DNA from: Geosiphon pyriformis uo1
Taxonomy: Eukaryota > Fungi > Glomeromycota
Assembly: GCA_016748015.1 (NCBI GenBank)
Contig: JAAOMT010000128.1
Location: 2,425,538 to 2,489,537, forward strand
Reading direction: 5' to 3'
DNA length: 64,000 nt
Shown here piece by piece: positions 8,567 through 60,724 of this stretch; within the stretch, counting starts at the first letter, position 1; each line of letters begins with the position of its first letter. Position numbers and translations under genes: made by a program. The notes beneath the pieces were generated by a model, which saw only the letters and a program-made list of their open reading frames with translations, did no database searches and was not told where the DNA came from.

Positions 8567-8568
8567 TT

Positions 8569-8584
8569 TGGTGCTCTCTGTGAG
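8569..8584 (+). promoter_or_regulatory. Primer binding site (TGGTGCTCTCTGTGAG)
   Basis: Begins TGG 2 nt after the LTR end; same motif at 35374, 40181 and 55933 (minus). Confidence 0.85.
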
Positions 8585-8625
8585 ATATAATCTTACAGAG
8601 AACTAGCACTAACAACAATCCAAAA

Positions 8626-30080: not shown

Positions 30081-30089
30081 TATTTAAAA

Positions 30090-32430: not shown

Positions 32431-32934
32431 TATTATTATATTTGTTTTATTTTTATATAATAATTAAGATTTACTATTATTATTTTTAGTTTTAAAAAAA
32501 ATCTAAAAATTATAATTATTAAAATTAATATTTTAAAAAAGTATTATATTTAATAAAAAAATTTTAATTATTAATATTGTTTTAAATATTAATATTTAGA
32601 TTATTTAACTATTAATTATAAAAGTTTTTATTTAAGTTTGTATTAATTTTAAGTTTTTTAAATTTTGTTTTATTAGAGCTAAGTTTTATATTAAAATTTT
32701 TGCTTTATTAATTTTTTTTGCTGTTGTGTTTTTGATTATTTTGTTATTATTACTATTGTAAATTATTTAAATAATTTTAAGTTGGGTTTTTTAAATTTAA
32801 GTTAACTGTATTAAATTTGTTAATTAGATATATTATTAAATTTATTAGTGTTTTAATTATTTTAATTACTAAGTTATTTAATATTTTTTTTGTTTTATAT
32901 ATTAAATTAAAAAATAATTAAATAAAAAAATTTT

Positions 32935-34497: not shown

Positions 34498-35371
34498 TGT
34501 TACTTATAGAAATATAGGAAATATATATTAACATAGTTATTAGCCAATCAGAAATAGACGTAGTAAAATGTGGAATTCCAGGATTCCTCTCAGGAATTGC
34601 AGAATTTCAGGAATTACAGGATTTTTACAAAGAATCACAGGATTCCAGAATTCCAGGATTCCTCTCAAAAAAATTGCAGGATTTCAGAAATTCCAGGATT
34701 CCTGTTGTGAAAAATTGAGAAATTGAGGAATTTCAATTATGTATATATAGCAGTAGGATTAGAAGCTAAAAAGACAGACCTCTTAGTTTAGATTTTATCT
34801 AGACAACTTTCCAAAACCACAAATAAATAAACTGTTTGTTATCTTAAACCTGCTGCCACTATCAACACTTCATGTTGATAGTAATTGATACTTAACCACA
34901 CTGGAACAATAGCTTTTGATCACAGCTATTAATAGAAAACTAACTTGTAAATTGCCTTGGCTTATTTCTTTTCTTTCTTTATTTTTATTTTTTTTCTTTA
35001 TTTCTTGCTTTGATTTTATTGTTGTTTACTAACTCTATTGAGGATTAATGCATGGGGTACTGACATCAAGATAAACATGACTGGTAAAAGACCCAGAAAT
35101 AAGAATAGAACACTTAATTGAGGATAGCTTACCAGGAGGAATACCAGCTATCAAGCTGAGAAAGAAATTGACGAAACTGCAGTTTCAGGAACCTATGAAT
35201 AAAACTATTACCATTGAATCTCTGTCCATTATACAAAAAACTCAACCAAACCCTTCAGATACAAACTTTTCAGACACAAACCTTCAGATCACTATCAACT
35301 GCAACTAGATTTGAGCACCAAGTTATGGGTTTTGTTATTTAATCCAACACCAGAAATAGTCATCTGTAATA
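34498..35371 (+). repeat. Element A 5' LTR
   Basis: Closely similar to 59924-60724; CCAAT near 34544, TATA near 34742. Confidence 0.95.
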
Positions 35372-35373
35372 TT

Positions 35374-35390
35374 TGGTGCTCTCTGTGAGG
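35374..35390 (+). promoter_or_regulatory. Primer binding site of element A
   Basis: TGGTGCTCTCTGTGAGG 2 nt after the LTR. Confidence 0.9.
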
Positions 35391-35430
35391 TATAATCTTA
35401 CAGAAAACCAGTACCAACACAAATCTAAAA

Positions 35431-38400
35431 GTGACAGAATCAGAAAACATAGGAGCAAACCATCTAGGATTCGCAAAATTCTTATTTCAACACTACTGTC
35501 AACATTTGAGATTAAATCACAACCACATATCAGCAGAATCAGCTTTTAATTTCTATGTCAATGAAAGAATTGCCTATCTGTTAGAAACACCAGTAAATAT
35601 CAAATTGGCAAGAGAAGCCTTTTATAGTGAATTAATTCAAAATACCAACCTGCCAACAAATCACAATTTCGCCTCCATTATCATGGAAATCAACAAAAAA
35701 ATTGAACACCATACACAGCAAAAATACCCCATTACTTACGCGAGCAAAGACAAAGGAAAACTGCAAACACCAGCAGTAACACCCAAAAGAATACAACCAT
35801 CTACTTGGAAGAAAACAAGAGTTGAGTCCTCAACTAATCCATTATACCACTATACACCTGGAAGTGCCATTAATATTACATCTACTGGTGCAGCCACATC
35901 AAACATGACATCAGCATTTGAATGATTCTTATTCCAAAGTAAACAAAGGAAAGCAGAGTTATTAGGACCATACCACATGTATTTTGAAGGATTTAACTCG
36001 CAATTATCAATGCCATTAGGACTCCAATTGCCACCACCTCCTCCAGATTTTGGAATTTCTGATCTGTGGGAAGTAATAGAATCAGAAAAAGAGAAAGAAG
36101 AAAAAGCTGAAGATCAAAAATTCACTTACCAGAACCTGATCACTGAAAACCCAGAATTTGAAATCCCAAATCTTCAAACACAGCAAAACCTAAATCCAGA
36201 AAATCTGAAAATCAAAACTCCAAATATTCAGACACTGTCAACTCAGGATAATTGAAACTCTGATTTAATAAATCAACAAAACTTACTTCCAGTAATTGTC
36301 ATTAATCAACCACCAATTAATCCAATAGCCAAATCCGTACAGCAGCCATTTCAACTACCACCCTAACAACCCATGCAACAACAACCACTTCAACAGCCAT
36401 CACAACAACCCAACTTAGATCCAATGGCCTACGCATCAATTGCAAAACTTGACAATTTTACCAGTGAAGAGGATGACATTCAGATATGGCTGAATGACAT
36501 AGAAAAAGCCATCGCAGCCAATGGATAGAATAACGCTCGAGCAATGCAAACCATTCCCTATTTTCTCAAGGATACTGCTGATTCGTGGTATCAGAGCTTG
36601 ATTAATAAACCACAAGACTTTAATGCCTTCAAAGTAGAATTTTTAAGATACTTTAGCAACAATAACAGTATCAACTAGTTAGCCAATACATTTAACACTA
36701 TGAAGCAAAGAGAAACAGAAGCAGTTACTACTTACTTGAGACACTTTCATCGAAATCTGCACCAAATCCAAGCAATTGATGCCAACTATTTTACAGCATC
36801 ACAAATTTTCAACCAGTTTATTCATGGCCTGTGCAGCAGCATCTTGCAACATGTATGTCCGTTACATCCAGGCACCCTTCAAGACACAGTCATATGCACC
36901 AGAGATTTTGAATCTGCTGAATCTAAAGCCAATCATGCCTAAGCTGTTAATCTAGTGATGAATGGATCATCTAATTTAGATTCCAAACTAAAACAATTCA
37001 GTAATACAATTAATCAGAAAATAGAGGGATACTTAGCAGACAATTATGCAATTTATTAACCACCCCAACAATGCAATAATTCAGGAAATGCGAATCATTT
37101 CCCAAATCAATCGTGTCCATCATTCTTCACCAATCAGCTGTGGCAGCCAGAAACATGTGTTTGCTATAACTGTGATAAACAAGGTCACATTAGAGCTGAC
37201 TGTTGATTTTATAGCAACAATTTATGATCAGGAAATCAATATCAAAACCCTGATTGCAGATTTCAGACTCAGAATCACTACCCAAATCAAGACCAATATC
37301 AAACCATTTACCTGCCAATAATGTAGCAACCAATCTATCTACTATTAGTATATCAACCTCCAATTTATCAACTGCAGCCACTGGTAATTTATCAGCCACA
37401 GCCCAAATAATTTATCAGCCCCAACAACCAATTCAAACATCACTTCAAAACCTCACTCAAATGACATCAGGAAACTCAAGACCTAGAATCACTCAAAACT
37501 GGAGATCGGTAATAGTTGTTCATCAACCGATTTCCAGCTCCTCTCACCAATTATCAGGCTCTCAACAGTGGAATCCAAATACTGGTTCCATCCAAAACCC
37601 GAATTCCCAAAACTATTTAAGTCTCCTGGTTACCCCAGAAGATGCCACCACCAACAACTCAGAATCCAACCCACCCCAAACAACACTTCCCAACAATATT
37701 CTACCAGCAACAGTCACCAAAAACGAATCTCTTGCAGCCATCTTTCCTTTCAAATTGGAGAAAACCATCAACTCACTTTTGTTCAGTGGAGCAGCACTCA
37801 AGGAAAAACCCATCACTGCGATGTACACTGATGCAAAAGTTAATGGTCACTCCATCAAACTGATCCTAGATAGTAAATTAGCTGGCAGTATTATCACAAG
37901 ACAACTCATGGATCAATTAGGTCACTGAGTTGATTGTGCTGCCAGTGCCAGAATTATTACAGCCAATGGAGCAACCAAAACACCCATTGGAGAGATTGAT
38001 AATTTCCCCATAGAAGTCAATGGCATTATAGTACTAATTAAAGTACTTGTCATGGAAGCCACTCAATACCAAGCACTTATTAAGAATGATTGGCTGTTCA
38101 AAACCAACATGACACTAGATTGGAACACCCATGAGCTCCAGCTTAGCCAGAATGGTTGACACACATAGGTACCAGCCATGTGTGGCCACTTCAAGCCCAT
38201 CACTATGCCATTAACACTACTTATCAAATTCGAGAAAGAAAAAATGAAACCCATCTGAGAAGCATACCAAGTCTTGTGGACTGACATTGATCACAACAAA
38301 CTGCTGCCAATACTTGCCTGGGACAACAATGACAATGAAAAAGAGAAACAAAGAAAAGAACTTACCTGGGAAGCCACCATTGACACTTGGACTGACAACA

Positions 38401-39337
38401 ACCAAAGTAAGATACCACCAATTCTAGATTGGAAAGAAAATAACAAAAAAAAAGAGAAAAAAAGAGAAGAAAACATACCTGAAGAAACCACCACTGCAGA
38501 AGAAATAACTAGTGGCTGGGAAAGAGAATACTCACATGAACCAATAAAAAAACCACCATATATATCTCTCAAATACAAGAACTGTGGAAAAAAACTGTCC
38601 TCAATGAGAGCTTGAGTAGCACCAGATAAAGACTACTGAACGCAAACCCATTACTATTGCAAGCCCTGCCATAGAAAATGATATGGCTATCCAAAAAGAC
38701 AAGGCAAGTGGGACAACAAACCATGTCTTGCTTGTGGCAAACAATTACTCGATGAAGGAATGTGGAATGACATTCCTGGCCAAGGAGGAACATGCGACAC
38801 TTCATACCAATACACAATTCTTATCAGCAACTGGGTAAGTCATGGAACACCCATCATGGCAGCTTGGCATTAAGCAATCTCTTGCTTAGAAGGATATCCA
38901 CACAACGAGGACAAGATTTGGCAAATGACCAATGCCAAAGTAGAAGGCGCTTCACTCAGTGAAATTCTGGAGATCAAGAATAATCCTTCAGAACCAACAG
39001 ACATTGTTTTGGTTCTTAATCTGGATGCTTTTATCAACTTAGAAAACAGCCCAGAAGAATTTCATGAACACTATTAGAATCTAGCACCCACGAGAGAAAA
39101 GCAAGAGCAATGCTTGGAAGAAATTAACACCCGATTATGTGATCACTGTTTGATTCTATGTGACTTCCAATTCTGTAATAAGTGTGACTTCATCTACAAT
39201 CCACCACCACGCATGATCTACATGATCCCCAAAGAGAAAGAACCAATCAGCAGTTGTGTATTGGAATCGGAATTACCATTCAATCCCAATTCAAACTTTA
39301 ACAACAATGATGACGAAAACACCAGTTCCAGCTTCAT
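35431..39337 (+). pseudogene. Element A gag, CCHC knuckle, aspartic protease, Cys-rich domain
   Basis: MAYASIAKLDNFT..EDD..IWLND; CYNCDKQGHIRADC; IKLILDS(G>K); multiple CxxC; stops mostly W/Q/R>*. Confidence 0.9.
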
Positions 39338-40178
39338 TGTTACTCATAGAATAGAGGAAGTACATTATTATTAGCAAGTAGAGATTAGCCAATCAGAAGT
39401 AAATGTAGTAAATGTGGAATTCCAGGATTCCTCTCAGAGGAATTACAAGATTCCAGAAATTTCAGAATTCTCCAGCAAGGAATTGCAGGATTCCAGAATT
39501 CCAGGATTTCTCTCATCAGGAATCATAGGATTTCTGTTACAAGGAATTGAAGAATTAAGGAATCTCAAATATGTATATATAGCAGTAGCATTAGAAGCAG
39601 AAAAAACAGAATCGACACCAAAAATCCTTAGCTTAGTTATCACAATCCTCAAATAAATAATTATTCGCTAGATCAAATTTATTCTTTACTATTAACACTT
39701 TATGTTGATAGTAACTAATACTTAATCATACTAGAACAATAGCTCTTGATCATGGCTATTGACAGGATACTAACTTGTAAAACCACCTTGACTTATTCAT
39801 TATTTTTTTTTATTTCTTTTCTTTATTTTTATTTTTTATTTTATTGTTGTGCACTAATGAGTTGAATAAGGCACTAGATTACTGATGTCAAGAATTGCCT
39901 GGTAAAAGACCCCTGCAAGAGGGTAGGACACATACAGAAGATATGGAATACTTATTAGAAGATTGCTGACCATCACGCCGAGAGAAGAATTGACAGAATT
40001 GCAATTCTGGGAAGCTACAGATAAAACAACTATTGAATCTCTGTTCATTATACAAAGAACTCAAACCAAAACCTTCAGATACAAAACCTTCAGATTATTA
40101 ACATCAATGCAAATAACTTTTAGCACCAAGTTATGGGTTTGTTATTTGATTAGAGACCCCAAATAATCATCTGTAACA
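39338..40178 (+). repeat. Element B 5' LTR
   Basis: tgttactcatag to ctgtaaca; PBS tggtgcttcctgtaagg at 40181. Confidence 0.92.
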
Positions 40179-40239
40179 TATGGTGCTTCCTGTAAGGTAT
40201 AATTCTACAGAGAACCAGTACCAACAATCCCATCTAAAA

Positions 40240-43200
40240 GTGGCAGAATCAGAAAACGTCAAAGCAAACCATCTAAAATTCGTGAAATCCTTATTTCAAT
40301 ATTATTGTTAACATTTGGGATTAACCCATAATTACATATTAGCAGAATCAGCTTTCAATTTCTACATCAACAAAAGGATTGCCTATCTGTTGAGAACATC
40401 TGTGAATATTAAATCAGCAAGAGAAACTTTTTACAACAAATTAATTCAAAACACCAGTCTACCCACAAATCATAATTTCACATCCATCATCACTGAGATC
40501 AACAAAGAAAATGAACACCACACACAACAAAGATACCCAATTACTTACACAAGTAAAGGCAAAGAAAAACTACAAACACCAGCAGTAACATCTTAAAGAA
40601 TACAACCACCCACTTGGAAGAAAACTAGAGTTGAGTCCCCAAACAACCCATCTTACTACTATATCTCTGGAAGTGCCATCAATATATCATTAACAGATGC
40701 ATCTATATCAAATGCAACATCAACATTTGGATGTTTCCCATTTCAAACTAAACAAAAGAAAGAGGATTTACTAGGACCATATGACAAGTATTTTGAAGGA
40801 TTTAAATTTTGATTGCCAACACCATCAGGATTTCGATCACCACCACCTTAACCGAATTTTGGTATTACAAGTTCTTGGAAAATTACTGAATCAGAAGGAG
40901 AACAAGAAGTAGAAAAGAAAGAAGAACCTAAGGATCAAAAATTTATTTACCAAAACTCAATCCTAGAAAACCTAGAAATTGAAACTCTGAACTTTCAAAC
41001 CCAGCCAAATTTAGACAATCAGGAAAATGACACTCCGAATATTTAAACTCCACCAAATCAGAACAATTCAAACCCTAAAGTAATTAATCAACACTTACTT
41101 CCAGTTATCATCATCAATCAACCACTCATTGAACCAATTGGCCAGCCCATCCAACCACAGAACCAACAAAATCAACAACTATTACCAGTACCACCTCAAC
41201 AACAACAACAACTTTCACCACCACAGCAACAACAAATGGCTTACACACCCATCGCAAAATTCGACAAATTCAACAGTGAAGAAAATGAATCCCAAGTCTA
41301 GTTAAATGATGTAGCCAAAGCCATTACAGCCAATAATTGGAATAATACTAGAGCAATGCAAGCAATCTCTTATTTTTTCCAGAATACTACTGTTACCAGA
41401 TGAAATTAGAGATATTATTTAGCATAAAAATACTTTTATAATTCCTATTATTAATTAGCATATATTATCATTTCAAATTATCACTTATTATATTAGCAAA
41501 ATATCCGAAATTATTATTTAATTAATAACCCAATTTGTACATAACACAAATGTAACCTAACTGTGACAATCAATCATGCAATACCCTGAACTATATAACA
41601 TTCAAAAGTTTGCTGAAATTTGTAGAAATTTGCCGAAATAATTAATAGTTCACTGAAATATCTAATAGTTTACAGAAATAACTTGTAGTTTGCTGAAATG
41701 TATCTTTAGTTCAGCAAAATTGTAGAAATAGCAAAAGTTCAAGTTCATGGAATAGTGTTATAACAAGTTGTATAAAAAAAGAGCTTCTCTCTTCAAGAAA
41801 ATATATCTTACTTTAGACTTATTACTTAAAAACCATTCCTATACACACAAAAATGAAATAAATATCAAATAAATTGAAAAACCCAATTCTTAATTATTTC
41901 CCTTAAAATTAATCAATTCCTACTAACAGTTTGAAATTGAGTAGCTACCAATTTCAGTAAACTGTTAAAAACACCTTCAGGCCTGGATCTGAAACGACTT
42001 TAACAAATCAATTTCTCATTCCTTTTTTTTTTTCTTTTTTTTTTCTTTTTTTTTTTTTTTTTTTTTTTTATCATAATTATTAGAGTAGCCTACAGACAAG
42101 AATTCCTATAGAAGAGTTAACTTTCATAGCAAAGTAACTACACATTTTAGTGAGCTTCCAGATGAGTATTTCTTGGAAAAAAGTTGACATTTACTACAAT
42201 ATAACTATACAAAGTAACTGGCACGAAATTGGCTATTCCACTATAAGCCCAGCAGTTCAAATTATAGGAGATAATTTGAAGAGATAAATTCAGTTATCAG
42301 AGGTTCAAGCACTTTCTATAAGCATGAATTAACAGCATTACAACACTTTACAAGAGCTAAGAAGAGACCAAAAACCTCCAATAACACCATTGATACATGG
42401 TATCAAAGCCTTGCTGTCAAACCCCAAAATTTTAATGGATTCAAAACTGAATTCTTGCAGTATTTTAGCAACAATAATAGTATCAACAAATTAACCAACA
42501 TCTTTACAACTATTAGACAAGGAGACACTGAAGCAGTTACTACCTACTTGGGATGTTTCCATAGAAATCTACGCCAAATACAAGCCATTTAAGCTGACTA
42601 TTTCACAGTACCACAGATTTTAAATCAATTTATTAGAGGATTGTGCAATAGCATCCTACAACAAGTATGTCTAATGTATCCAGTGGACCTTCCAACTGCA
42701 GTCACCTATGCCAGAGATTTTGAAGCAGCTAAACTAAAAGCTAATCATGCTCAAGCTGTGAATCTAGCAATGAATGGATCATCTGAATTGGATTCCAAAT
42801 TGAAGCAATTCAGTGATTCAATTAATCAGAAATTAGAGGGATACTTAGCTGACAATTGCATAATTTATCAACCTCCTTAACAGTGTAACAATCAGGAAAA
42901 TGCAAATCATTTCCAAAATCAGTCATGTCTATCGTTGTCATCTAATCAGTCATAACAGCCAGAAATGCGCATCTGTCACAACTGTGATAAACAAGGACAC
43001 ATCAAAGCCAACTGCCATACTTATAGCAATCCACAATCGGGAAATCAATATAAAAACTCTGATTACCAGTTCCAGACTCCAAACCATCAACCAAATCAAG
43101 ACTAATACTAACTCACTTACCTGCCTATGATGTACTAACCAATTTATCAACCACCAGTTTATCAAACTCCAGTTTATCAACCACAGCCACAAGCAATTTA

Positions 43201-44334
43201 TCAGGTGCAGTCACAAGTAATATATCAACCACAGCCACCAACAATCTATCAAACACCCACCATTCAAATACCACCAGCAAACCCAGCTCAAATGACATCA
43301 GAAAACCCAAGATTGAGGATCACCCAAAACTGGAGATTGGTGATGATTGTACATCAACCGATCTCCAGCTCTTCCCACCAACAATCAGGATCTCGTCAAC
43401 AGAATTCAGACACTAGTTCCACCTAAAACCCGAATTCCCAACACTATTTAAGCCTTCTGGTGACTCCAGAAGATGCCACATTCAGCAATCAGGGAATCGA
43501 ACAACAACAACCACCTACCAATAATATCTCATCTGCTACAATCACTAAAAATGAATCTTTGGATGTCATCTTTTCATTTGAACTCGAAAAACCATCAGAT
43601 ATGCCATTATTCAGTGGAGCAGCACTTGAAAAGAAACTAATCACGGCCATGTACACTGATGCCAAGGTCAATGGCCACTCCATCAAATTAATCCTTAACA
43701 GTAGTTCAGTAGGCAGCATTATCACATGACAACTTATGGATCAATTAGGTCACTAAGTTGATCATGCTGCCAGCACCAGAATTATTACTGTGGATGGAGC
43801 CACCAAAATCCCAATTGGCAAAATTGATGACTTTCCAATTAAAGTCAATGGCATTGTAATACCCATCAAAGTTCTGGTGATGGAAGCCATCCAATACTAA
43901 GCTTTAGTTGGTAATGACTGGCTATCCAAAACCAACACCATGCTCAATTGGATAACTCAAGAACTAGTACTCAGCCAGAATGGTCAACACATGTAAGTAC
44001 CAGCAATGTGTGGTCACTTCAAAGCTACCAATACCACAGCACCACTAATTGACTTTGAAGAAAAAAACCAAAACCCATCTGGGAAGCATACCAAGTCTTG
44101 TGGGCCAATATTGATCACAATGAACTGCTGCCAATACTCTTATGGGATAATAACAGAAAGAGTAAACAAAGAAAAGAACCTACCTGGGAGACAGATAATC
44201 TGACCTGAACTGATCACGACAAAAGCAAACCAATAACAAGCTGAATATGGAAGGAAGAGAACACAAAGAGAAAAGAAAAAGAAAAGAAAGAAGAAGTAAC
44301 CACCACCACTCATAACCCCTACACCTACACTATA
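40240..44334 (+). pseudogene. Element B gag-protease (split by solo LTR C, cut by the inversion)
   Basis: MAYTPIAKFDKF; CHNCDKQGHIKANC; MYTDAKVNGHSIKLIL. Confidence 0.9.
41391..42386 (+). mobile_element. Solo LTR C (third, unrelated LTR family)
   Basis: tgttacc to ataaca; B gag resumes across it (QNT.|DTWYQSL); flanks ctac/ccat derivable from ccgc; U3-like repeats, tataaaa near 41771, T-tract. Confidence 0.85.
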
Positions 44335-45397
44335 GACCCAAAGTGGGACAGTCCATTCCACATACATGAAGTGTTAGGAAATGGAGCTTACAAATTACGA
44401 TTGGAAGACAGAATTTTAAAGAAAGTAGCACATAGAAATCAGTTAAAAATTTATCATGTAAAACAGAAATCATAGTCATCAGTATCTCAACTAGAAACAC
44501 AAATTTCATTAATCAGACCAGAAGATATACCACAAAATTTGGAACCAATCATCATTATTGAAACATAGACAATGGGCAGCAAATTAAATTGGGAAATTCA
44601 AATATATATAGCATCCAAAAAGCAGCAAGAAACAATAGAAATTTCAACATGGACCTTTCAGATCAAATTTTAAAATTATCTAAACAATTATTTGAAACAA
44701 TTCAAAAATTGACATCTCAAATAGAAATAACAATTGATAAAAAAAAGATATGATACAAAGATAAGAGCAGGAGAGGAGAAGATGAGAGTTCAATTAGAAC
44801 TAAATGTTTCCTCCCCTACCCACTACCCGAAAGGCAATGTGGAAGAAAAAATTGCCTTTGGGTGGGAGGTGGACAAGAAAGAGGCAAAGAATGAGAAAAA
44901 AGTTACAAAAGAAGATACTTGGTCCCCGAGCTTGAAAAAATAAAAGAAGCTTTAGCTCGTGAGACCAAACTCTCTGAAACAGGGGAGTGGACACCTGACA
45001 ATGCCCAGGAATGGAAAGAAAGACTTCTTCCAGCTTATTGGTTCTACAAAATTGGAGAACAGCTTGACTTAAAAACACCATACAAAGACCTTAGCCAGAA
45101 AATGTTCAACAAAGAAGCAATACAACAAGTAGAAAAATTCATAGAGAAAAACAACTTGACCCTACATTACAAAGCAGCATATTGACTATATGCCACCTTC
45201 CAACATTGCCCAAACATACTACTAAATGGATCTATGAAAACCATAATGGTTAACAGCATAGGACGAATAACCAATCAACAGTTCAAAAACTTACAAAAGA
45301 CAATACTCAAGGCAACAATCGAACATTACATAAACAAAACCACAATAACAGATACATACGGTTTCGCAGAAGCTCAATTTTAAAAAAAGAGGGATAA
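44335..45397 (+). pseudogene. Element D 3' part (inverted): integrase GPF/Y tail, ORF3 (44649-45383), PPT
   Basis: DPKWDSPFHIHEVLGNGAYKLRL continues D integrase KAEKQWSEKF, which breaks at 48942; PPT aaaaaaagagggataa. Confidence 0.88.
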
Positions 45398-46039
45398 TGT
45401 TACCTGAGTAGAAAAACCAATCCAAAGTTATGAAGAAATGTGACCAAAATGTGACATAACACAGAATAATGCGCAATAACATTGGATAATACGTTATAAT
45501 GTAGAATAATGTGTTATAATACAGGATAACACAAAATAGTGTGCAATAACATAGGATAATGTGTTATAACGCAGGATAACACAGAATAACATGTAATAAT
45601 ATCAAATAATGTGTTATAACATAAGATAACTAGTGATAATGTAGAAAAACAAAGCAATAACAGAAACAACAAAGCAATAGTTAGCAATAACGAGACAATT
45701 GAAAGCAATCCTGTAAAACCAAAAGAATGTATAAAAGCAAGTAGTTGTAGAAGTGAAAAAAGACAGACAAGACAGATACGAACCTTTAGACCAAAATTAA
45801 AAATATTCATACCTTTTCATCCTTTATTATCTTCTCTATTTCATCTCCTGAAATAAACCAATTATTAAAAGAAATCAGAATCATGAATTCATGTTTTCAA
45901 ACTTCGTGGAATTTATGTGAATTAACCCTTGTCTCATACCTCCATTCTAGAACAGATGCTCTTAGCATAACTGCCTTGAACCTATTAACAATTTGGACCA
46001 ATCACTCTTGATCACGGTGATTGACGATACTAATTTATC

Positions 46040-46101
<62 letters not shown>

Positions 46102-46506
46102 CTTTTTTTGTCCTATTTTTGTGGAGTGGCAACATGGTAAAATTGACTGTCTGGGAATAGACTTCGTAATAGCCTGGTAAAAAAGGGAAGCTCTCCCTAA
46201 ATTTTGGATATTAACATTATCTTGTTAGCTTACCAGAAGGGCAAAAAGACAATGCCAGACCCTAATGACTGCACTCATTAGCTCAGAGAAAAAAGCTCAC
46301 ATTTACAAAAAACATTACAATCGATGAAAGACAAACTCTGTGTCTTATAACCAAAGAACTCAACAGGTAAAATTCACATCCAGGAATAGACTTTCAGAGA
46401 CTGATAATCAAGACTAAGCCAACAGAATTACGCAGAAGACGTATCATCAATAATTGAGAGTGCCAAACATTACCATTTCCCATACCCACCAAGTTTATCT
46501 GTAACA
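45398..46506 (+). repeat. Element D 3' LTR
   Basis: Reverse-complement match to 55936-57059; tgttacc to gtaaca. Confidence 0.95.
46047..46101 (+). repeat. Poly(T) tract in LTR D (counterpart poly(A) at 56341-56408)
   Basis: About 55 T and about 68 A homopolymers at homologous LTR positions. Confidence 0.95.
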
Positions 46507-48941: not shown

Positions 48942-51900
48942 AAACTTTTCACTCCACTGTTTCTCAGCTTTTGTATAATGTAACAGTACTTGGTCTCTAA
49001 TTTTGAATTCCATTAGTTGTTCTGATAGGTGTTTATCATGTCTTTCTTTTTGTCATTCTTGAGTGTGACTAATATTGTCAGCTGCTGTTCTTCGATTGTT
49101 TTCCAATGTTTCCATTAGCTGGTATGTTCTTTGGTGTAAGGTAGCCTCAAAATTCTCTTCATTGATTGTTTCTGTTGAATATGATGGTATCACTCGTTCA
49201 ATTGGTAATGTAGCTTTTTTTCCATAGACTAGTTCAAACAGTGTGAACTGAGTTGTATTTTGTTTCAATGTTCAGTATGCAAAGAGTACAGAAGGTATGA
49301 ATAAGTCTCATTCTTGTCTGTTTTTATAACTTATTTTTGCTAGTGCTTCACACAGTGTTCTGTTAAATTGTTCTACCAGTCTGTTCGTTTGTGGGTGGTA
49401 TGGTGACAATAAGGGTTTTTTTATTCCAAACCATTGGCTTAGTTCAGTCAGCGTATTATTAACAAAGTGTGTTTCCTAATCAGATAATAATTCTTTTGGA
49501 CATCCATGTTGGCAAATTAGGTCTTAATGCACAAATTTGGTGACTGTTTTGGCATTGGCCACTTGGATTGCTCTGGCTTCTGGCCATTTTGTAAGATAGT
49601 CTATGGCTACAACGATATAGCGATTTCCTTGGGATGTAATTGAAAAAGGTCCAACCAAATCAATCCTAATTCTATCAAATGGATTTCCAACTGGAATGGG
49701 TCGAAATGGTTCTGTTGATCTTGCTCCTCCTCTTCGCTGACATGTGTCACAATTGAGCACATATTCGAAAATGTCTTTGTACATCATTGATCAATAGTAT
49801 AAGTTTAGTGTTCTTTCGAGGGTAGCGTCTTTGTTAAAGTGTCTTGCAGTCAGATTTGAGTGCACGCTATATAGTATAGTTTCTCTTTTACTGTCCTTGA
49901 TTAGTCATTGTGAATTGGAGTGGTTTCAGTGTTCTCATCGATATAGTTGGTTGTCTTGAATAAAATAATTTCGGGCTTGTTTTCATATGGTACTCTGTTT
50001 TTGTTGAGATAATATCTCCTTGAAATGTAGTGTCAATAGGTACTGATGTAGTCATTGATAAGTAAGTGTGTCCATGGGTCTGGGATTAGATTTGTGGCAT
50101 CCTCAACAAACTATTGACATTGGTGTTCTTGGATCCTTCCTTGTAATGAACTTTGAGTGGGAATTGTTGCAGATAAGTACTCCATCTTACATATTTTCCT
50201 TCTAGTTGTGGATTGTTGAGTAACCAAATAAGTCCTTTGTGGTCAGTATATAGATCAAATGGTTGACTGAGGTAATGTTTCCAAGTCTGTATGGCCCAAT
50301 AAATGGTAAGACATTCTAGATCTGTTGTGCTGTAATTCTTTTCTGCTGAGCTAGTGCTGCAACTAGTGTAGGCAACTGGATGTTCTCTATTGTCTGGTCC
50401 TATCTGTGATAAGACTGCTCCTAGAGCATTTTTCAAGATGTCCATAGTGACAATAAACCATTTAGTGAAATCTGGGTAAATCAGGATTGGGAATGTGATC
50501 AATCGCTGCTTGAGATAGTCGAATGCTTTCTGTTGATCTTCCTTCTACAAGTACAGTACGTATTTGGACAACAATTGATGGAGTGGTTTTGCAATGTTCG
50601 AGAAACCTTTGACAAATCGACAATAATATCCTGCTAATCCTAGAAATCCTTGTAATTCTCTGAGATTGATTGGGGCTGGAAAATTCTTGACTTTTTGTAC
50701 TTTATCTGGATCAGGTTTAACTCTGTCCTTGCCGATTACATGTCCTAGGAATTTTAACTCGGTTTTTCCAAAGAAGCACTTCTCGGGATTGAGTTTCAAT
50801 TCAGCACTATGAAGGCGTTTGAAGACTTGTTGTAGGTGGAGCAGATGGTCTTCAAATGTTTTGGAGAACATGTTTGTGTTGTTTAGGTAGACTACTATTG
50901 ATTTCCAAAGGATTCCTTTGTATACTACATCCATCAGGCGTTGAAACATGGCAGGAGCATTACAAAATCCAAAAGGCATTATGTTAAACTCAAAGTTTCC
51001 GTCTCGAGTGGTAAATGCTGTTTTTTCTTTGTCTTTGGGGTCCATTTCAACTTGCCAATAACCACTTGCTAAATCTAATGACGAGAACCATTTCTTTTTC
51101 CCTAGATTGTCTAGAATTTCCTGGATAAAAGGAGTGAGATAATTATCTCCTTGTGTAATATTATTTAGTTTTCGATAATCTACACAGAATTGCACTTTTC
51201 CATTTTTCTTGGTGACCAAGACTACTGGCAAGGACCAAGGGCTTAATGATTCTTTGATTAGGCTGTTATCAAGCATCTGTTGTATTTCTTGTTTAATTAG
51301 GTTATCACCAGATGGGGGTATGCGGTAAGCTTGTTGCTTAATTGGTTGAGCGTCTCTCGTATCAATCTAATGCTTCACAATGTTGGTGTGTTTGAACTCA
51401 TTTTCACTGGCAAAGACATTGGCATACTGATTCAGAAGGACTTTGAGTTGCATTTGTTACAGGGTACTTAAATTTCCTAAATTCAATTTATTGATCTCTT
51501 CTGGTGTGAACAAGTAACTTTTTTTTGGCAAATTTTATACTTGTGAGGTAATGTCACAGAATAAGAATAATTGTGCAAAATCTGAAATGGACTGGAGTTT
51601 TTCAAGATTCTGAATATCTGTGGATATGGAACTGACAAAAGTCCCTTTGGGGATTTCAATGACATCTTCTGTTGGATTGTGGATGGGGATTTTGAAGTGT
51701 TTATAGGCTTTGGCCAGTAGGTATAGATTAGCAACATCGGCTAGGGAACAGATTTTGGGACTGGCTTCAAATAATAGGGCTTGATCTTGGATCTTTCGAT
51801 TCACCTTGAGGATGTATTGTCAATATAGAAAAATGGAGATGATGGTATTGGTGTGGATAAATTCTACCTGGTCACTGTCTTCCTCCATGAAATTAACTGG

Positions 51901-54900
51901 TACATTTCCTTTTCCACTTGATCCAAACCCATTGATTCCTTAAGCAGTGAGGCCTAACTCTTTTTGGGTTGTTATCAGGGTTAATTGGGGTATTTTAACT
52001 AGGGGTAAGAAAATAGCTTGGGCAATCTTTTCTTGTGATTCTATTTTGTAGGGTCTGTTCAAATTGTTCTGTAGCATCACGATGATGTTTCCCGTGTAAC
52101 CGGCATCAATGATTCCTTCTTTTATGTCGATTTTTTTCTTGGCTAGACTAGATCAAGAGGCAACTTGTACCATTGTACTAACAGGAATTTTTAATGCTAT
52201 CTTAAGATCTATTTTTACGAGGGAATGTGAGGCTATAATAATGGATGATTGTTTGAGATATCGTAGGTTGAAACTGGTATCAGTGTCATGTGCTCTTTCG
52301 GGGCAGATTCTTTTCTCATTGTTACTGTATCATTTTAGCTCTAGTTCTTTGGATAGGTTGGGATATGCGAGATACTGTTCTGTTTTAGTATCCTCAGTTG
52401 GATCTTGGAACGACATGTCCTCGGTGATCAATACCTCTTCTTCGGGCTCAGGTAGTTCAGTGATTGGAAACAGTATTCTTGGAGGTGGATTGAATATAAG
52501 ATCACATTCGTCGTAGTACTGGAAGTAACAGGGGATCAAACAGTAATCACACAGTTTGGTATTCAAATCGGCCAATCTTTGCTCCTGTTCTTCGCGAGTT
52601 GGGGCCAATTCCTGATATCGGTTCTGAAATACGTCTGGGTTATCTGTGAAGAAATCATTCTTGGGGTAGTCTGGTCCAGTATATTTGGGCATCTAAGGAT
52701 TGTCTTTGATTTCTTGTATTTTTTCGGGCATGGCACCTTCAGTCTTGGCACTTCCTATTCTCCAGATTTTGTGGTTATCATGTGGATAACCATCTAGCCT
52801 GTTGAGTGCTCATTTCCAAGTGTCCTTGATGGGAGTTCCCTTTTGTACTCAATTATTGATTAATATGGTGTATTGACAAGCCTCGTCGCATGTTCTTCTT
52901 CTGCCAGGCACATCATTCCAGAGTCTTTTATCTGGCAGGATTTCACCACATGTGAGGCATGATGTGTGGTCCCACTTGTCTTGTCATTTTGGTCGTCTAA
53001 ATCTTTCCAGTAAACAAGGCCTGCAATAGTATTTGGTGGTGGTGGACCATTTTTCGTTGTCCCTGATACATGCATCCATAGTGGATAGTTTTTTTCCACA
53101 TCAACACATATTAGTCTTGGGGGTTGGTAAACTAAGTTTCTTTGGTTCAAGATTACGTATCCTAGTGATGACAATTGGATTCTTCTTCGGCTCTGCCTTT
53201 TCTTTTTTCTTTCCAGATTGGTGGTGGGGGTAGTTCAGTTTGATAATCATCTGCCCATAAAACCTGATAGGTCTTGATAGTTGGTGGCATTGATGTGTCT
53301 TCGAATTCAATAAGGAGTTCCTCGGTACGTTGGGTTTTAAAGTGTCTGCATGTAGCTGGAACTTGGACATACTGTTTGTTGAACGTGAGTTAAAGTTCTT
53401 GGGTGTTCCAGTCGAGAGTAGTATTGGCTTTTAACAACCAGTTATTTCCTACTAGAGCTTGATATTGAGTAGCTTTTATGACAAATACTTTGATAGGGAT
53501 TTGGATTCCATTAATCTTGAAAGGAAAGTTGTCAATTTCTCCTATTGGGGTTTTTGTGTTCCAATCCACTGTAATAATCCAGACAGTAGTGGCATAGTCT
53601 ATTCAGTGACCTAGTTGGTCCATGAGCTGCTTCGTGATTATGCTATGAGCTGATCTGCTATCCAGGATTAATTTAATGTCTATTTCTCCGACTCTGGTAT
53701 TGGTGTATAGGGCCGTTATTGGTTTATCTTGATTGATGGCTGCTCCACTAAAAAGGCTATGGGTGTTCAAATTATCAATGTCAAAAGGAAATATGGCGGC
53801 TAGGGTGGTGTCTTTGGTAATAGTGGCTGGTGGGATATTGCTTTTTGTTTGCTTGGAAGGTTGGGAGATTTGTTCTATATCCCCCCCTTCCACAGGTGTA
53901 GATTTATCAAAACTCTGGTTTTCCATAAGACTGAGATAAGAAGCTTGATTTGGGTATCCAGTTGGTGTTAGTCGAGATTGGGCAGGACTGCGAGAGATTG
54001 GTTGAGACAGTTCACTGTTGGTTTACATCTAATTGTTGTTGGGATTCCTCCATCCCTGATTATAGTTTATAGCTCGAGGTCTGGATGGGCTGTAAGGTGA
54101 AGTTTGATAGTGAGAGATTGCTTGTGTTATTGGTGGTGGTTGATAATAATTCTGGGGTGGTGGTTGAGTGTACGGGACTTGTTGTGCGTATAGGGGCAGT
54201 TGATTCCGAGGTATAGAATATTGAGGTACCATGTTTTGCTGATATCTGAATTGCTGGTATGGGTTTTCTTGATTTTAGTTCATGATCTTTCTTCTGCAGT
54301 CATGGGCAATATGTCTAGGTTTCTGGCAGTAGTAACAGTTGTGGGAATTGGATCTCCAAGATTGTTGCTGTTGCTGACAGTTCTATTGCTGTGGGTATCT
54401 GCTGTTGTTGTTATTTTCTCTCTGTTGGGGTGGTTGGTAAGTTTCTGTAGTTCTGGCTAAAAATCCCTCAATTTTCTGAGTTAGTTTCTCACTCAATTGG
54501 GTTATCTTTGCATCAATGTCAAAGGTTCCATTAATGGCTAAATTAACAGCTTGAGTATGGTTCACTTTTTGTTCCACAGACTCAAAATTGTAAGCAAGAG
54601 TGATGGTGTCTTGTAAACTGGTTGGATGGCAGAGTCTTATGAATCTTAGAATACTATCCCGCAATCTTTTAATGAATTAATTAAGAACTTGCACCGCAGT
54701 GTAGTAGTCTCTTTCGATAGCTAATATTTGATGCAGGATTTGATTGAATTGTCCGAGATAAGTAGTTACTGCTTCGTGATCTTTTTGTTTAATTATGCTG
54801 AATTGATTCTGCAATTGGATTAACGTATTGGGGTCACAGAAGTATTGCAAAAATGTGAGTTTAAACTCAGTAAAGGAGGTAGGCTTCTCTGTCAGGCTCT

Positions 54901-55873
54901 GGTACCATGAATTGGCAGTTCCAGTCAGAAAAAACAGCAGTGCCTGAACTGTACAGTTGTCATTCCAACCATTAGTGGTAATTGCTTTCTTGGCGTCTGT
55001 GATCCAAGAATATGCATTATTTTCTTCACCAAAAAATTTTTCCAATTTAGCAATATCTCAGTAAGCCATGATCCGGTTAATGGGTGGGGTGTTACTGGTT
55101 ATGTTTAAAAGGATTGGTGTCTGTGTATTTGAGTATTCTCTGGGTGCTAATGCTGGTTGCTTTCCTTTGTCACTTGAACCAATAGGTTGTAAGATAGCTG
55201 TTTCTGCCGTCAGGAAAGATGCTGATTCTGCTAGGTTTTGTGCTGGTGGCTGTTCTCAAGTTGATGGGTTTCTTTCTATTTGACTGGCTGCTGGGGTAAG
55301 ATTTCCAAACAGCAATCCATATTCTTCTAGTGATTTGGTCCAACTGTGTTGATTCTAAGGGTGTGGATTTTCAGGAGTTTGTGGTGTTTCTGACTGGGTT
55401 TCCAGGAATGGGTTGAATACAATTCTACTTTGGGGTGTCTGATGGTATGATGGAGTTGTTGGAAAGAGGACCCTTGGTTTCTTGTTGACTGTGAACTTGG
55501 CTTGGGCAGTTATGGAGTTGTTGGATTCGTTTTTGTATTCCTCAGGGTCAGATTCCACTGGTTGTTGTACTTGAGGGAATTATTGTGCCATGTAATATTT
55601 AATGTCTGTATCGATTATGCACAGAGTTTCAGCAATTGCTTGGGTAGTCATGGCTGTTGAGTACTCTAGTAAGCTTTGATGGATTTGTTCTCCAAGTCTT
55701 CTTGTATCAGTTGTGCGGCCTAACAAGCAGTCAATTTTTGCATTGATATAGTTACAAAAATCACTTTCTGCATAAGCAGTTCTTGCTGGTATTTCTAGGT
55801 CTTTTCAAAAGTATTGAAATAGTGCTTTTCTATATGAGGAGTGGTCCTTTCCTATTGTTCTAATAGTTGCCAC
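48942..55873 (-). pseudogene. Element D internal: gag-PR-Cys-rich-dUTPase-RT-RNase H (55873-50086) and integrase (50075-48942)
   Basis: FCVDYRKLN, LDLASGYWQ, YLNN (decayed YLDD), GFLGLAGYY; RNase H LGAVLSQ..EKNYSTTDLE; HHCC CDTCQRR, IDLVGP, TKWPEA. Confidence 0.95.
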
Positions 55874-55935
55874 TTTTATGTATTTTTGGGGGTGCTCTGT
55901 CTCTGTGGATTTATAATCTCACAGGGAGCACTAAA

Positions 55936-56340
55936 TGTTATGGGTAAACTTGGTTGGTATGGGAAATGGTAACGTTTGGCACTCTCAATTATTGATGATG
56001 CATCTTCTGTGTAATTCTGTTGGCTTAATCTTGATTATCAGTCTCTGAAGGTTTATTCCTGGATGTGAATTTTACCCATTGAGTTCTTTGGTTATAAGGC
56101 ACAGAGTTTGTCTTTTATCAATTGCAATGTTTTTCATAAATGTGAGCTTTCTTCTTCAAGCTAATGAGTGCAGTCATTAGGATCTGGCATTGTCTTTTTG
56201 CCTTTCTGGTAAGCTAACAAGATAATGTTAATATCCAAAATTTAGGGAGAGCTTCCCTCTTTTACCAGGTTATCATGAAGTCTATTCCCAGACAGTTGAT
56301 TTTACTATGTTGTCACTCCACAAAAATAGGACAGAAAAAG

Positions 56341-56410
<70 letters not shown>

Positions 56411-57059
56411 AAAAAAAGATAAATTAGTATTGTCAATTGTCATAATCAAGAGCAATTGGTCCAAATCATTAATAGATTTGAGGCGGTTATGCTAAAAGCA
56501 TCTGTTCTAGAACAGAGGTACGAGACAAGGGTTAATTCACGTAAATTCCACGAAGTTTGAGAACATGAATTCATGATTCTAATTTCTTTTAATAATTGGT
56601 TTATTTCAGGAGATAAAATAGGGAAAATAATAAAGGATAAAGGAATATGGATATTTTTAATTCTGGTCTAGAGGTTTGTATTTGTTTTGTTTGTCTTTTC
56701 TCACTTCTATAATTACTTGCTTTTATACATTCTTTTGGTTTTATAGGATTGCTTTCAATTGTCTCGCTATTGCTAGCTATTGCTTTGTTGTTTCTGTTAT
56801 TGCTTCATTTTTCTACATTATCACTAGTTATCCTATGTTATAACATGTTATCTGACATTATTACATGTTATTCTGTGTTATCCTGCATTATAACACATTA
56901 TTCTACGTTATTGCGCACTATTCTGTGTTATCTTGCATTATAACACATTATCCTATCTTATAATGCATTATCCAACATTATTGCACATTATTTTGTGTTA
57001 TGTCATGTTTTGGTCACGTTTCTTCATAACTTTGGATCGGTTTTTCTACTTGGGTAACA
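55936..57059 (-). repeat. Element D 5' LTR
   Basis: Followed on the minus strand by PBS tagtgctccctgtgag (55933-55918). Confidence 0.95.
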
Positions 57060-57782
57060 ATAAGCAGAATTAAAATTAAATGCAACAAAGTATTTTTTTG
57101 GCAAAACAGAACTAAAATTCTTAAAACACATAGTTAGCAAAGATGGCATAAAAACAGATCTGGAGAAAATAGAGATAGTAAAAAACTTTCCAATACCAAC
57201 CAACGTAACCAAGCTGAAATTATTCTTAGAATTCATGAGCTATTATAGATGCTTCATAAAGAACTTTTCAAAGATAGCACAACCATTCAATGATCTTCAA
57301 ACCAAAAATGCAAAGTATGAATGGACTGAAACCTAGCAAAAAGCATTTGACATTTTAAGAAGAAAGCTTATTTAAGCTCCAGTATTGATTTATCCAGATC
57401 ATAGTAAACCATTCATTATCACCACCAATGCATCAGGTCAAGCATTGGGAGCAGTACTATTTCAGAGAAGACCAGATAAAAGAAAACATCCAGTTGCATA
57501 CACCAGCCAAGGTTTAACACCAGCTGAAAAGAACTATAGAACACCAGAATTAGAACATTTAGCAATCTATTGGGCAGTTATGAAATAGAAAGAATACTTG
57601 AGCCAAAAGTTTGAGGTGTATACAGATTACAAAAGATTAACATCACTCCAAAACAAGAATTTGGAGATGGAAGACAGTCAAGATAGAAAATGGCACTTTC
57701 GCCACATACTTATACCATACATTATAAAAAGAGAAAAGACAATGGAAATGCTGATGGTTTGTCGTGAATAGAACAATTCTAA
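57060..57782 (+). pseudogene. RT C-terminal half and RNase H resuming after the element D insertion
   Basis: FERLQQ (46507, minus) joins AELKLN; TSD acaa/ataa; ASGQALGAVL..AEKNY..ELEHLAIYWA. Confidence 0.9.
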
Positions 57783-57843
57783 GAACATTTCAACCCAAAA
57801 ATATAACAAAACCAAAACAATACTCACAAAAATATAACAAAAG

Positions 57844-59226
57844 ATGAACACACAAAAATATTAACAACTTCAACATTATATAGATACTCAATAGTTCAAG
57901 AAGAAATTATCTCAACTGAAACAAAAGAGGATCAAACAACAATCCAAATATTTTATCACTCACCAAAATATACTTTATCAGAAAAATAGAAAAGATTCAG
58001 ATCAACCAACCAGAATAATTACAGAATCAGAAAAAAAGACAATACTGTTCAACATGCACTCAGATCCAACTGCAAGACATTTTTATAAAGAAGCAACCAT
58101 GGAAAGAACCAGAAAGAGATACTATTGGCCATCAATGTATCCAGACATTATCCAATATGTGCAAAATTGTGATGCTTGTCAAAGAAGAGGAGGAACAAGA
58201 CCCAGCAAACCATTGAGACTAATCAAAGTGGGACAACCATTTGACTGCATTGGAATCAATTTAGTCGGACCATTGACAATTACCAGCAGAGGCAACAGAT
58301 ATATTGTAGTAGCTATGGACTATCTTACTAAATGGCCAGAAGCAAAAGCAATTCAAAGAGCAGATGCAGAATCCGTTGCCGAATTCGTCCATCAAGATCT
58401 GATTTGTTGACATAAATGTCCAAAAGAACTATTATCAGACCAAGAAACCCATTTTGTGAATAAAACATTAGCAAAATTAAGCCAAAGATTCGGAATTAAG
58501 AGACCACTATCATTACCATACTATCCACAAACCAATGGATTAATTAAAAAATTTAATAGAACATTGTGTAAAACAATAGCAAAACTCAGCCAAGAAAACC
58601 AAAATGAATAAGATTTGTTCATACCATCAGTATTATTTGCTTATTGGACAATAAAGCAAGACACCACACAAGCAACACCATTTAAATTAATATATGGTAG
58701 AACAGCAACATTACCAGTTGAGATAGAGGTTAACACATATCTAACTGAACCAATAACAGAAAAAAGTTTCCAAGAAACATTGTTAAAAAGAACATATAAC
58801 TTAATAGAAACATTGGAAAACAAATGAAAAAGAACAGTTGATAACATACAAAAGTCACAAGAGAAACAGAAAGAAAGACATGATAATCAACTACCAGACA
58901 AACCAGTTGAATTCAAGATTGGAGACAAAGTACTTTTACATCATACCAAAGCGGAAAAACAATGGAGTGGAAAATTCGACTCCAAATGGAATAGACCATT
59001 TCACATAGAAGAAATTCTAGGGAATGGGACTTACAAATTAAGACTGAATAACAAAATCTTAATCAAAGCAATACATAGAGATCCACTAAAACCATACCAT
59101 AACATCACATTACTATTCACCAGTAATATTCCACAATTAGGAGTACAGAGGATACTAGTCCAACCAGAGGAAATTCCATGAGATCTGGAACCAATTATTA
59201 TCATTGACAACAACACGTTAAATTAA
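57844..59226 (+). pseudogene. Integrase ORF (HHCC, DDE, GPF/Y tail; no chromodomain seen)
   Basis: ATG 57844; HSDPTARH..YYWPSM..CDACQRR; GINLVGP; YPQTNGLI; single frame with point-mutation stops. Confidence 0.9.
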
Positions 59227-59250
59227 TCCATCAAAAAAATATATAAAGAC

Positions 59251-59910
59251 ATGGTAGATGTGACAAAAAATATCAGAAAAATAGAAATTACAGACAACAT
59301 CCACTCACTAGCACAACAACTCTTTCAATTGATTCAACTCCAAGAGATGGAAATTACAATTAATCAACAAACCATCTGATATCAAGACACTAGAAAGATA
59401 TTGCCACATAGAACACAGAAAAAAACAGAAAATACTGTTGACAAAATCATTGCAAAAGTAAAATTAGCAATAAAAGAGTCGACAAAAGAGTCACTATACC
59501 AAGAATTAACTAAAGAAACTTGGAATTAGTGAATACAACAATTTCCAAGAAACTATTGTTATTTTTACTTGGGACAACACGTGAATATCCAGAATCTATA
59601 TACAGATAAAACAAAGCAATTATTCGACACAAGAATACTACAACAATTAGAACATTTTGTGGGAAAGAACAACTTATCCACACAGGCCCAAGCCATATAC
59701 TGAATACACACAGCATTTCAGGATCAACCAGAAATTTTACTCAATAAAGCAATGGATACGGTTACCAATAATTAATTAGGAAAGATCACTAATGCTTAAT
59801 TTGAAGAATTACAAACTCAAATAACACAAGTAATTCTCGAAAATGAAATTCAAGAAATACTTTAAGAAAAGAAATTAACAGAATTAGATTTCAATGGAGC
59901 TCAATATTAA
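59251..59910 (+). pseudogene. ORF3, uncharacterised protein of about 219 aa in the env position
   Basis: One frame from ATG to TAA abutting PPT aaaaggagggaa; homologous to 44649-45383, about 10590-11237 and about 770-1336. Confidence 0.8.
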
Positions 59911-59923
59911 AAGGAGGGAATAA

Positions 59924-60724
59924 TGTTACTCATAAAAATATAGGGAATATATATTAGCATAGTTATTAGCCAATCAGAAGTAGATGTAGTAAAATGTAGA
60001 ATTCCAGGATTCCTCTCAAAAATTACAGGATTCTCACAAAGAATCATGGGATTCCTGTTGTAAAGAATTGAGGAATTGAGGAATCTCAATTATGTATATA
60101 TAGCAGTAGGATTAGAAGCTGAAAAAACAGACCTCTCAGTTTAGATTTCATCTAGACAACTTTCCAAAACCACAAATAAATAAACTATTTGTTATCTCAA
60201 ACCTGCTGCCACTATCAACACTTCATGTTGATAGTAATTGATACTTAACCACATTGGAACAATAGCTCTTGATCACACCTATTGATGGAAAACTAACTTG
60301 CAAATCGTCTTGGCTTATTTCTTTTCTTTCTTTATTTTTATTTTTTTTCTTTATTTCTTGCTTTGATTTTATTGTTGTTTACTAACTCTATTGAGGATTA
60401 ATGCATGGGGTACTGACATCAAGATAAACATGACTGGTAAAAGACCCAGAAATAAGAATAGAACACTTAATTGAGGATAGCTTACCAGGAGGAATACCAG
60501 CCATCAAGCTGAGAAAGAAATTGACGAAACTGTGGTTTTGGGAAGCTATAGATAAAACTATTATCATTGAATCTCTGTCCATTATACAAAAAACTCAACC
60601 AAACTCTTTGGATACAAACCCTTCAGACACAAACCTTCAGATCACTATCAACTGCAACTAGATTTGAGTATCAAATTACGAGTTTTGTTATTTAATCTAA
60701 CACCAGAAATAGTTATCTGTAACA
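59924..60724 (+). repeat. Element A 3' LTR
   Basis: tgttactc to ctgtaaca; 73 bp shorter than the 5' LTR, in the U3 repeat array. Confidence 0.95.

Follow-up and report, generated by a model that had tools for sequence, protein, structure and literature searches.

Decayed Ty3/Gypsy retrotransposons of Geosiphon pyriformis belong to a Glomeromycotina lineage with a stand-alone integrase

Integrase usually enters the retrotransposon particle as part of Gag-Pol. In canonical Ty3/Gypsy elements (Metaviridae, for example yeast Ty3) it is encoded inside Pol, behind protease (PR), reverse transcriptase (RT) and ribonuclease H (RNase H, RH), and Ty3 itself generates target-site duplications (TSDs) of 5 bp. 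Among fungi, PosPlaTy3-5 (Postia), the Phanerochaete elements and Tmt1 (Tuber) carry a dUTPase between PR and RT, and such dUTPase-bearing Gypsy elements have, in the available portion of PMC2864245, one or two open reading frames (ORFs), integrase in Pol and a placement with the chromodomain group. Here we describe Ty3/Gypsy copies from Geosiphon pyriformis uo1 (Glomeromycota), at positions 34498-60724 of a stretch of 64,000 nucleotides (GenBank assembly GCA_016748015.1, contig JAAOMT010000128.1, forward-strand positions 2,425,538 to 2,489,537), the whole of which we call the window. Like Ty3/Gypsy elements in general, these copies have long terminal repeats (LTRs) bounded by TG...CA, a primer-binding site (PBS), a polypurine tract (PPT), a short TSD, a CCHC Gag and the domain order PR-RT-RH-integrase; like the fungal elements just named, they have a dUTPase between PR and RT. 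They differ from canonical Ty3/Gypsy elements in that pol ends at a stop and integrase follows from an ATG of its own (in window elements D and F and in intact loci from elsewhere), in an added Cys-rich domain and third ORF (ORF3), and in a TSD of 4 bp. The lack of a chromodomain and the split integrase set them apart from the published descriptions of fungal dUTPase-bearing Gypsy elements.

The common layout is LTR, PBS, a first ORF (gag-CCHC-PR-Cys-rich-dUTPase-RT-RNase H) closed by a stop codon, an integrase ORF with its own ATG and stop, ORF3, PPT and LTR, with 4-bp TSDs. It is complete in two composite elements, D and B/E/F, and partly visible in a third copy outside 34498-60724. Pfam matches cover Gag, dUTPase, RT, RNase H, integrase H2C2 and rve, and an SH3 domain of the GPY/F type, and the best PDB match of the window RT, of RVT_1 type, is the Ty3 RT (4ol8, E 1.8e-59). 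Reading frames are shared from gag to PR in B and D, from the Cys-rich domain through dUTPase to RT in E, and from dUTPase through RT to RH in D; in the outside relative P0337, PR, Cys-rich domain, dUTPase and RT lie in a single unbroken ORF. In D, the 5' LTR (55936-57059, minus strand; 4-bp TSD in the host RT) is followed by a PBS near 55935-55915 and by the gag-to-RNase H ORF (50086-55900, minus), which has one frameshift near 53170 and ends in TAA at 50088-50086. The N-terminal part of the D integrase (48940-50075, minus) starts at ATG 50075, 10 nt past that stop, and its C-terminal part (44332-44568, plus) ends in an EPIIII-type motif and a stop; then come ORF3 (44649-45383, plus; 244 codons interrupted by 3 internal stops; full-length identity of 81% with an open gene model of G. 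pyriformis), the PPT (45384-45397, plus) and the 3' LTR (45398-46506, plus). F, on the plus strand, comprises the C-terminal RT and RNase H (57060-57782, the TAA ending at 57782), a stand-alone integrase of about 460 codons in one frame (57844-59226; H2C2, rve and SH3, no chromodomain) whose ATG lies 61 nt past the pol stop, ORF3 (59251-59910, 28% identical to the D-type ORF3) and a PPT (59911-59923). The pol stop falls 4 codons past the DxLSR-type motif of RNase H in D, in F and in the third copy, near 690, so that three window copies spanning two LTR families share one stop position.

The first-pass annotation had superimposed copies A, B, D, E and F and proposed this layout, with 4-bp TSDs, no chromodomain, and unrelated LTR U3 regions in A/B and D. 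The layout is borne out by the LTR pairs, TSDs, Pfam domains, shared frames and the pol stop followed by an ATG; the copies are not independent genomes, however, since B, E and F are one sequence lying within the LTRs of A. The TSD length also holds: A is flanked by a perfect ACAT (34494-34497 and 60725-60728), and of duplications of 3, 4, 5 and 6 bp tried at D and at solo LTR C, 4 bp is the only one that restores the host reading frame. Neither the F integrase nor that of the metagenome locus L003 gave a Chromo match in a Pfam scan that detects one in locus L034, and blastn found no match between D-type and A-type LTRs.

The window elements are dead members of a non-chromodomain Ty3/Gypsy lineage of Glomeromycotina in which pol ends after RNase H, and we hold with high confidence that the separate integrase is a real trait of this lineage and not decay. 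Intact relatives were used in place of a genome-wide consensus. An RT query gave 7169 matches among 7943 candidates scored; 120 were listed, and of the 109 that aligned well enough for scoring, 70 end no more than 30 residues from the RNase H end, 30 continue and 9 were uncallable. All 70 that stop lie inside one 101-tip group (FastTree), and R. irregularis gene models on contigs of 95-182 kb also end at the RNase H stop. The 30 that continue are mostly animal elements; added to these are five gene models of R. clarus in which the DxLSR motif or the part behind it is skipped, two proteins that extend past RNase H but lack integrase, and P0109, which is a true fusion. From a metagenome scan, 80 of 573 confirmed stretches were kept as loci (L numbers): 28 are fused, 18 split, 6 have integrase before RT, 2 are stop-only and 26 not callable. 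Eight of the split loci group with fused relatives, and we regard them as damaged; L003, L006, L007, L008, L011, L028 and L065 each combine an open pol with an open integrase ORF of 403-433 aa. The element in L003 is whole: gag is overlapped in the -1 frame by a separate pol, the junction to the 426-aa integrase reads TAATG, and two more ORFs, PPT and LTR follow. A scan of IMG/VR found no relatives.

In the RT-RH tree (70 rows selected from 189, with support from the Shimodaira-Hasegawa-like approximate likelihood ratio test, SH-aLRT), the window copies fall in a 34-row clade with support 100, which holds an inner 28-row clade at 95 and consists of 29 split, 3 gene-model or extension and 2 fused rows. 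In the integrase tree (62 rows), 13 rows form a clade with support 96, which includes P0109 but not L065. Both trees thus cluster the elements, and therefore integrase, as judged from these sequences, descended with RT and was not captured. Weighing against the separate integrase as a trait of the lineage are the fused L034 and P0109, both within the 34-row RT clade and the latter nested among split integrases, and the character of the trees, which are quick and supported by SH-aLRT only. Named hosts in or beside the clade are Rhizophagus irregularis, R. clarus, Cetraspora pellucida, Paraglomus brasilianum and Geosiphon, a list that covers the named members of a clade made up mostly of metagenome records. 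The stand-alone integrase is its defining trait, while dUTPase, Cys-rich domain and ORF3 come and go: L003 and L006 give no dUTPase match, L029 has no room for ORF3, and in L003 gag is a separate ORF. The earlier view of an old, diversified clade with its own expression strategy thus stands, in that trees and intact loci show the split integrase to mark the clade and not to reflect mutational decay, and in that a split integrase requires non-canonical expression.

Several of these relatives have peculiarities of their own. L034 (1545-5087) encodes a fused RT-RH-integrase with a chromodomain (E 9e-13), and its RT groups with the split-integrase clade and not with chromovirus-like rows, possibly through independent chromodomain capture or a long-branch artefact. 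In a sub-clade of L006 (137-4441), L028 (3394-6705), P0056 and P0120, pol is prolonged by 170-580 residues of unrelated sequence past RNase H, and L006 and L028 nevertheless keep integrase separate. L065 (291-7345) is a divergent split-integrase element with a gap of 9 nt, its integrase outside the main clade; downstream, two long ORFs (418 and 567 aa) overlap each other, and the 418-aa one has no Pfam match. P0084 has a NUDIX domain (PF00293) N-terminal to the protease, a second nucleotide-sanitising enzyme in the clade besides dUTPase. The gag N-termini of L003 (478-900), L006 (6804-7100), L028 (505-800), P0044 and P0056 show a CxxC followed by an aromatic helix, with no Pfam name, and that of Geosiphon looks unlike this type.

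How integrase is expressed is best approached through the 14 readable junctions, at which the start was taken by rule (first in-frame ATG) in 9 cases and by eye in 5. Integrase begins with Met followed by Asp, Asn or Glu in all 14 and has Tyr at position 6 in 13; the fused P0109 has no Met at the corresponding place, as judged by eye. Gaps from stop to ATG are -8, -8, -4, -4, -1, 9, 10, 18, 30, 61, 62, 63, 163 and 727 nt. All three phases are represented, and therefore one fixed readthrough or frameshift into integrase is ruled out. Five of the junctions overlap the pol stop, in three geometries (TAATG, ATGA and ATGnnTAA; ATGA and ATGAATAA overlaps are both present at loci of this analysis), and nine have gaps of 30 nt or less. 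In caliciviruses and influenza B, overlaps of the UAAUG and AUGA kinds are known to mark reinitiation that follows a long ORF, according to the available text of PMC10275272, and excerpts of that source and of PMC2699510 report reinitiation for the fungal virus CHV1 and for SART1. We hypothesize, with about an even chance of being right, that integrase is made by termination on pol followed by reinitiation at the integrase ATG of the same RNA: ribosomes would finish pol at the stop behind RNase H and restart at the nearby ATG. Such coupling would tie integrase output to Pol output, and the reinitiated integrase could be packaged in cis without fusion to Gag-Pol. Sublineages may differ in their route.

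We stress that several points weigh against termination-reinitiation. The gap is at least 61 nt at 5 of the 14 junctions, and the 727-nt spacer of L028, with 12 ATGs and TATA-like runs, is better fitted by a separate promoter. Two of the five overlaps (L002 and L025) belong to copies that are incomplete or damaged, and AT-rich DNA can yield overlaps by chance. The core motif of the TURBS (termination upstream ribosome-binding site), which is complementary to 18S rRNA, was found at none of 12 junctions tested; TURBS is, in the accessible part of PMC10275272, not used by every reinitiation system.

Four other explanations have to be weighed. A subgenomic integrase mRNA, started from an internal promoter that lies within or behind the RNase H coding region, is possible if somewhat unlikely: the wide spread of gaps up to 727 nt, the TATA-like runs of the L028 spacer, the TATA-like motifs that precede downstream ORFs by 46-150 nt in L003, L006 and element D of the window, and a purine at -3 in 9 of 14 integrase starts would all suit it, while a separate mRNA has no need of five overlaps in three geometries or of nine junctions within 30 nt. 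Splicing, either from the leader to integrase, as in the leader-spliced RNA from which foamy virus pol is made, or through an intron that fuses RNase H to integrase, we consider unlikely. R. clarus and Cetraspora gene models (P0074, P0075, P0088, P0103, P0112 and P0108) do link RT-RH to integrase by predicted introns; however, these joins vary by family and remove the DxLSR motif of RNase H, the R. irregularis models stop at the pol stop, a fusion has no need of an invariant integrase Met, and four spacers lack a YAG acceptor. Entry of ribosomes at an internal site of the genomic RNA, with no dependence on pol termination, would fit spacers that are A-rich and, in 7 of the 9 positive gaps, free of ATG, but it leaves the overlaps unexplained, no Rfam match was found in the 4 loci scanned, and we judge it very unlikely. 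A joint P of 0.018 for the ATG-free spacers was discarded as invalid, as it multiplies just the 7 of 9 that are ATG-free. Finally, the notion that stop and ATG arose by decay of an ordinary gag-pol-integrase polyprotein is already largely refuted and barely credible, for although C-to-T stops abound in all window copies and eight of the 18 split loci look damaged, the stop position is common to open intact loci and to 70 database proteins (of the 109 scored), the integrase start is invariant and both trees cluster the trait.

The first-pass annotation had further held that canonical fungal Gypsy elements lack the accessory features seen here, and this does not stand: the available part of PMC2864245 draws fungal Gypsy elements with CCHC knuckles, with a dUTPase placed between PR and RT, and with extra ORFs of unknown function. 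A dUTPase in such elements is thus already published and not new. Within the lineage it is present in the window families, P0063, P0105, P0107 and P0337 and absent from most relatives. The enzyme would be expected to limit uracil in the cDNA. The Cys-rich block found 374 relatives in a protein search, and 9 of the 10 distant relatives that were looked up are gene models of G. pyriformis; this predicted triple zinc domain is mostly Geosiphon-specific. Its 12 cysteines are 82-100% conserved and form three groups of four, and we predict three C4 zinc sites and a helical bundle from a structural model with a predicted local distance difference test score (pLDDT) of 72, below 50 at the third zinc site. 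Foldseek placed GATA, LIM and PHD-like fingers at the top with weak scores (E 0.13 or worse), the helical part reached a best VIA Z of 6.4, and Pfam gave one sub-threshold PHD-like match; tandem treble-clef zinc fingers are a reasonable but unproven interpretation of the model, and the block probably binds nucleic acid or chromatin.

ORF3 of the window, with stops read as X, has 40 protein matches, all from Geosiphon pyriformis (46-88% identity), which makes this fungus very likely the host of the elements. A final ORF before the PPT or directly after integrase is also found in L003, L006, L008, L028 and the tail of a Cetraspora model, and is absent in L029; in the L003 family its length of 195 aa is kept across many clusters at 74-93% identity. 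Sizes range from 147 to 244 aa. The products are modelled as small and mostly helical (AlphaFold2, pLDDT 81), and we predict a small soluble helical regulator. None of 17 members had a Pfam match above cut-off, sequence comparison with PDB gave no match, and Foldseek searches against PDB and BFVD brought up nothing at E<=0.001 (the highest VIA Z was 4.8); likewise, sequence and fold comparison gave no Pfam, PDB or viral fold match that would make ORF3 an envelope-like protein. Homology between the Geosiphon ORF3 and that of the L003 family is probable at best, on the strength of position, shared pattern and weak scores: hhalign against the other ORF3s gave a probability of 1.7% (E 0.029), and in a shuffle test of five proteins the score was reached by 7, 330, 16, 0 and 43 of 400 shuffles. 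A 'FAGAQ' likeness at the ORF3 C-terminus was dropped as protein evidence, the same DNA motif being present after the stop in L003. This conserved DNA motif lies just 5' of the PPT, within ORF3 in the window (45364-45397 and 59890-59923) and past the stop in L003 (9183-9228), and is probably a cis element. In some members ORF3 probably has its own promoter. In L003, integrase and ORF3 are separated by a fourth ORF (7458-8258, 266 aa) that has no Pfam match above cut-off; the C-terminal half of its product is long, rich in glutamine and glutamate and coiled-coil-like, and a TATA-like motif lies 83 nt upstream of the ORF. It is a doubtful, speculative possibility that the lineage is as old as the arbuscular mycorrhizal fungi and that its integrase is reinitiated with ORF3 as the reinitiation transactivator, convergent with caulimovirus TAV.

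The Ty3/Gypsy copies of the window are nested and decayed. The outermost, A, has an A-type LTR pair (34498-35371 and 59924-60724, plus strand) of 93.9% identity, with transitions making up 96% of mismatches. Its PBS (35372-35390) resembles sites 3' of the B, D and upstream LTRs, and its decayed gag-CCHC-protease-Cys-rich region (35389-39337, plus), with one frameshift near 37250-37400, is broken after the Cys-rich block by the B 5' LTR (39338-40178, plus; A-type, 78% to A). The gag-CCHC-protease of B follows in a single frame (40180-44333, plus), its gag containing the solo LTR C (41391-42386, plus; decayed 4-bp TSD). An inversion of about 4.6 kb spans about 44334-48940; its reversal makes the protease region of B continuous with E, which encodes the Cys-rich domain, dUTPase and N-terminal half of RT (46507-48940, minus; one frame, 7 stops in 811 codons), and rejoins the two halves of the D integrase. 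B, E and F then form one internal sequence located between the LTRs of A, with D inserted into the RT of E/F as a full-length minus-strand element, its LTRs (57059-55936 and 45398-46506) 90.4% identical. B lacks a 3' LTR within the window, and recombination of B/E/F with A is therefore most likely.

Behind the PBS of the window copies, the gag frame lacks a conserved in-frame ATG. A GTG in A-rich context occupies the same place in A (35430), B (40239), D (55874, minus) and one upstream copy, and is mutated in a fifth (remaining sites 8625 and 2319); it is possibly a non-AUG gag start. Long T (or A) tracts lie inside the C and D LTRs (42010-42069, 46030-46100 and 56366-56425) and differ in length between the D LTRs. 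Positions 1-12166 hold further copies of the same lineage, much more AT-rich and decayed, in the order LTR, RH-integrase(deleted)-ORF3, a shared LTR (1350-2255), gag to RT, and an inserted element whose LTR pair is just 74% alike. The target of the A insertion (30000-34497 and 60725-64000) shows long decayed frames with few stops and is probably another retroelement. Between the repeat blocks, a gene island at about 14-30 kb encodes eukaryotic RPL26, NPR3 and TPR proteins (Pfam), with observed/expected CpG ratios of 0.47-0.93, versus 0.04-0.45 in the repeats at 30-64 kb. No tRNA genes were found within the window.

A widespread lineage whose integrase is cut from Gag-Pol needs another way to produce and package it, and its natural series of stop-start geometries offers a test set for reinitiation after long ORFs in fungi. 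LTR elements make up 41.2% of the G. pyriformis genome in the accessible text of PMC11952901. Element fragments are annotated as many hypothetical host genes (the 40 ORF3 matches and 374 Cys-rich proteins), and gene predictors seem to mask the split with introns that connect pol and integrase.

Among described Gypsy groups, chromoviruses have a chromodomain at the integrase C-terminus, absent from the F and L003 integrases, and the window copies lie far from chromovirus-like outgroup rows of the RT-RH tree (rows recognised as such in this analysis, not named references). Elements with integrase upstream of RT, which we take to be those called Gmr1-like, likewise have a Pol that ends at RNase H, and 6 of the 80 loci show this order; they keep integrase in the polyprotein ahead of RT, however, and form a separate clade in both the RT and integrase trees. 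Full-text literature searches returned no description of the layout with a separate integrase; curated transposable-element libraries, which were outside the scope, may already hold such a consensus. With regard to expression, the non-LTR element SART1, CHV1, caliciviruses and the M/BM2 junction of influenza B use overlapping UAAUG or AUGA stop-start sites for termination-reinitiation, as given in the available text of PMC10275272, but none is an LTR retrotransposon and their overlap is fixed, whereas in the present lineage it is variable and no TURBS core was found at the 12 junctions tested. Caulimoviruses such as cauliflower mosaic virus (CaMV) are reverse-transcribing relatives with densely packed ORFs and reinitiation aided by the viral TAV (same source, in part); unlike the window elements they have neither integrase nor LTRs, and the searches run gave no sequence or fold link between ORF3 and TAV. 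The separate-integrase plan is thus a departure from canonical Ty3/Gypsy elements, in a lineage whose terminal features, RT and domain order remain those of Ty3/Gypsy.

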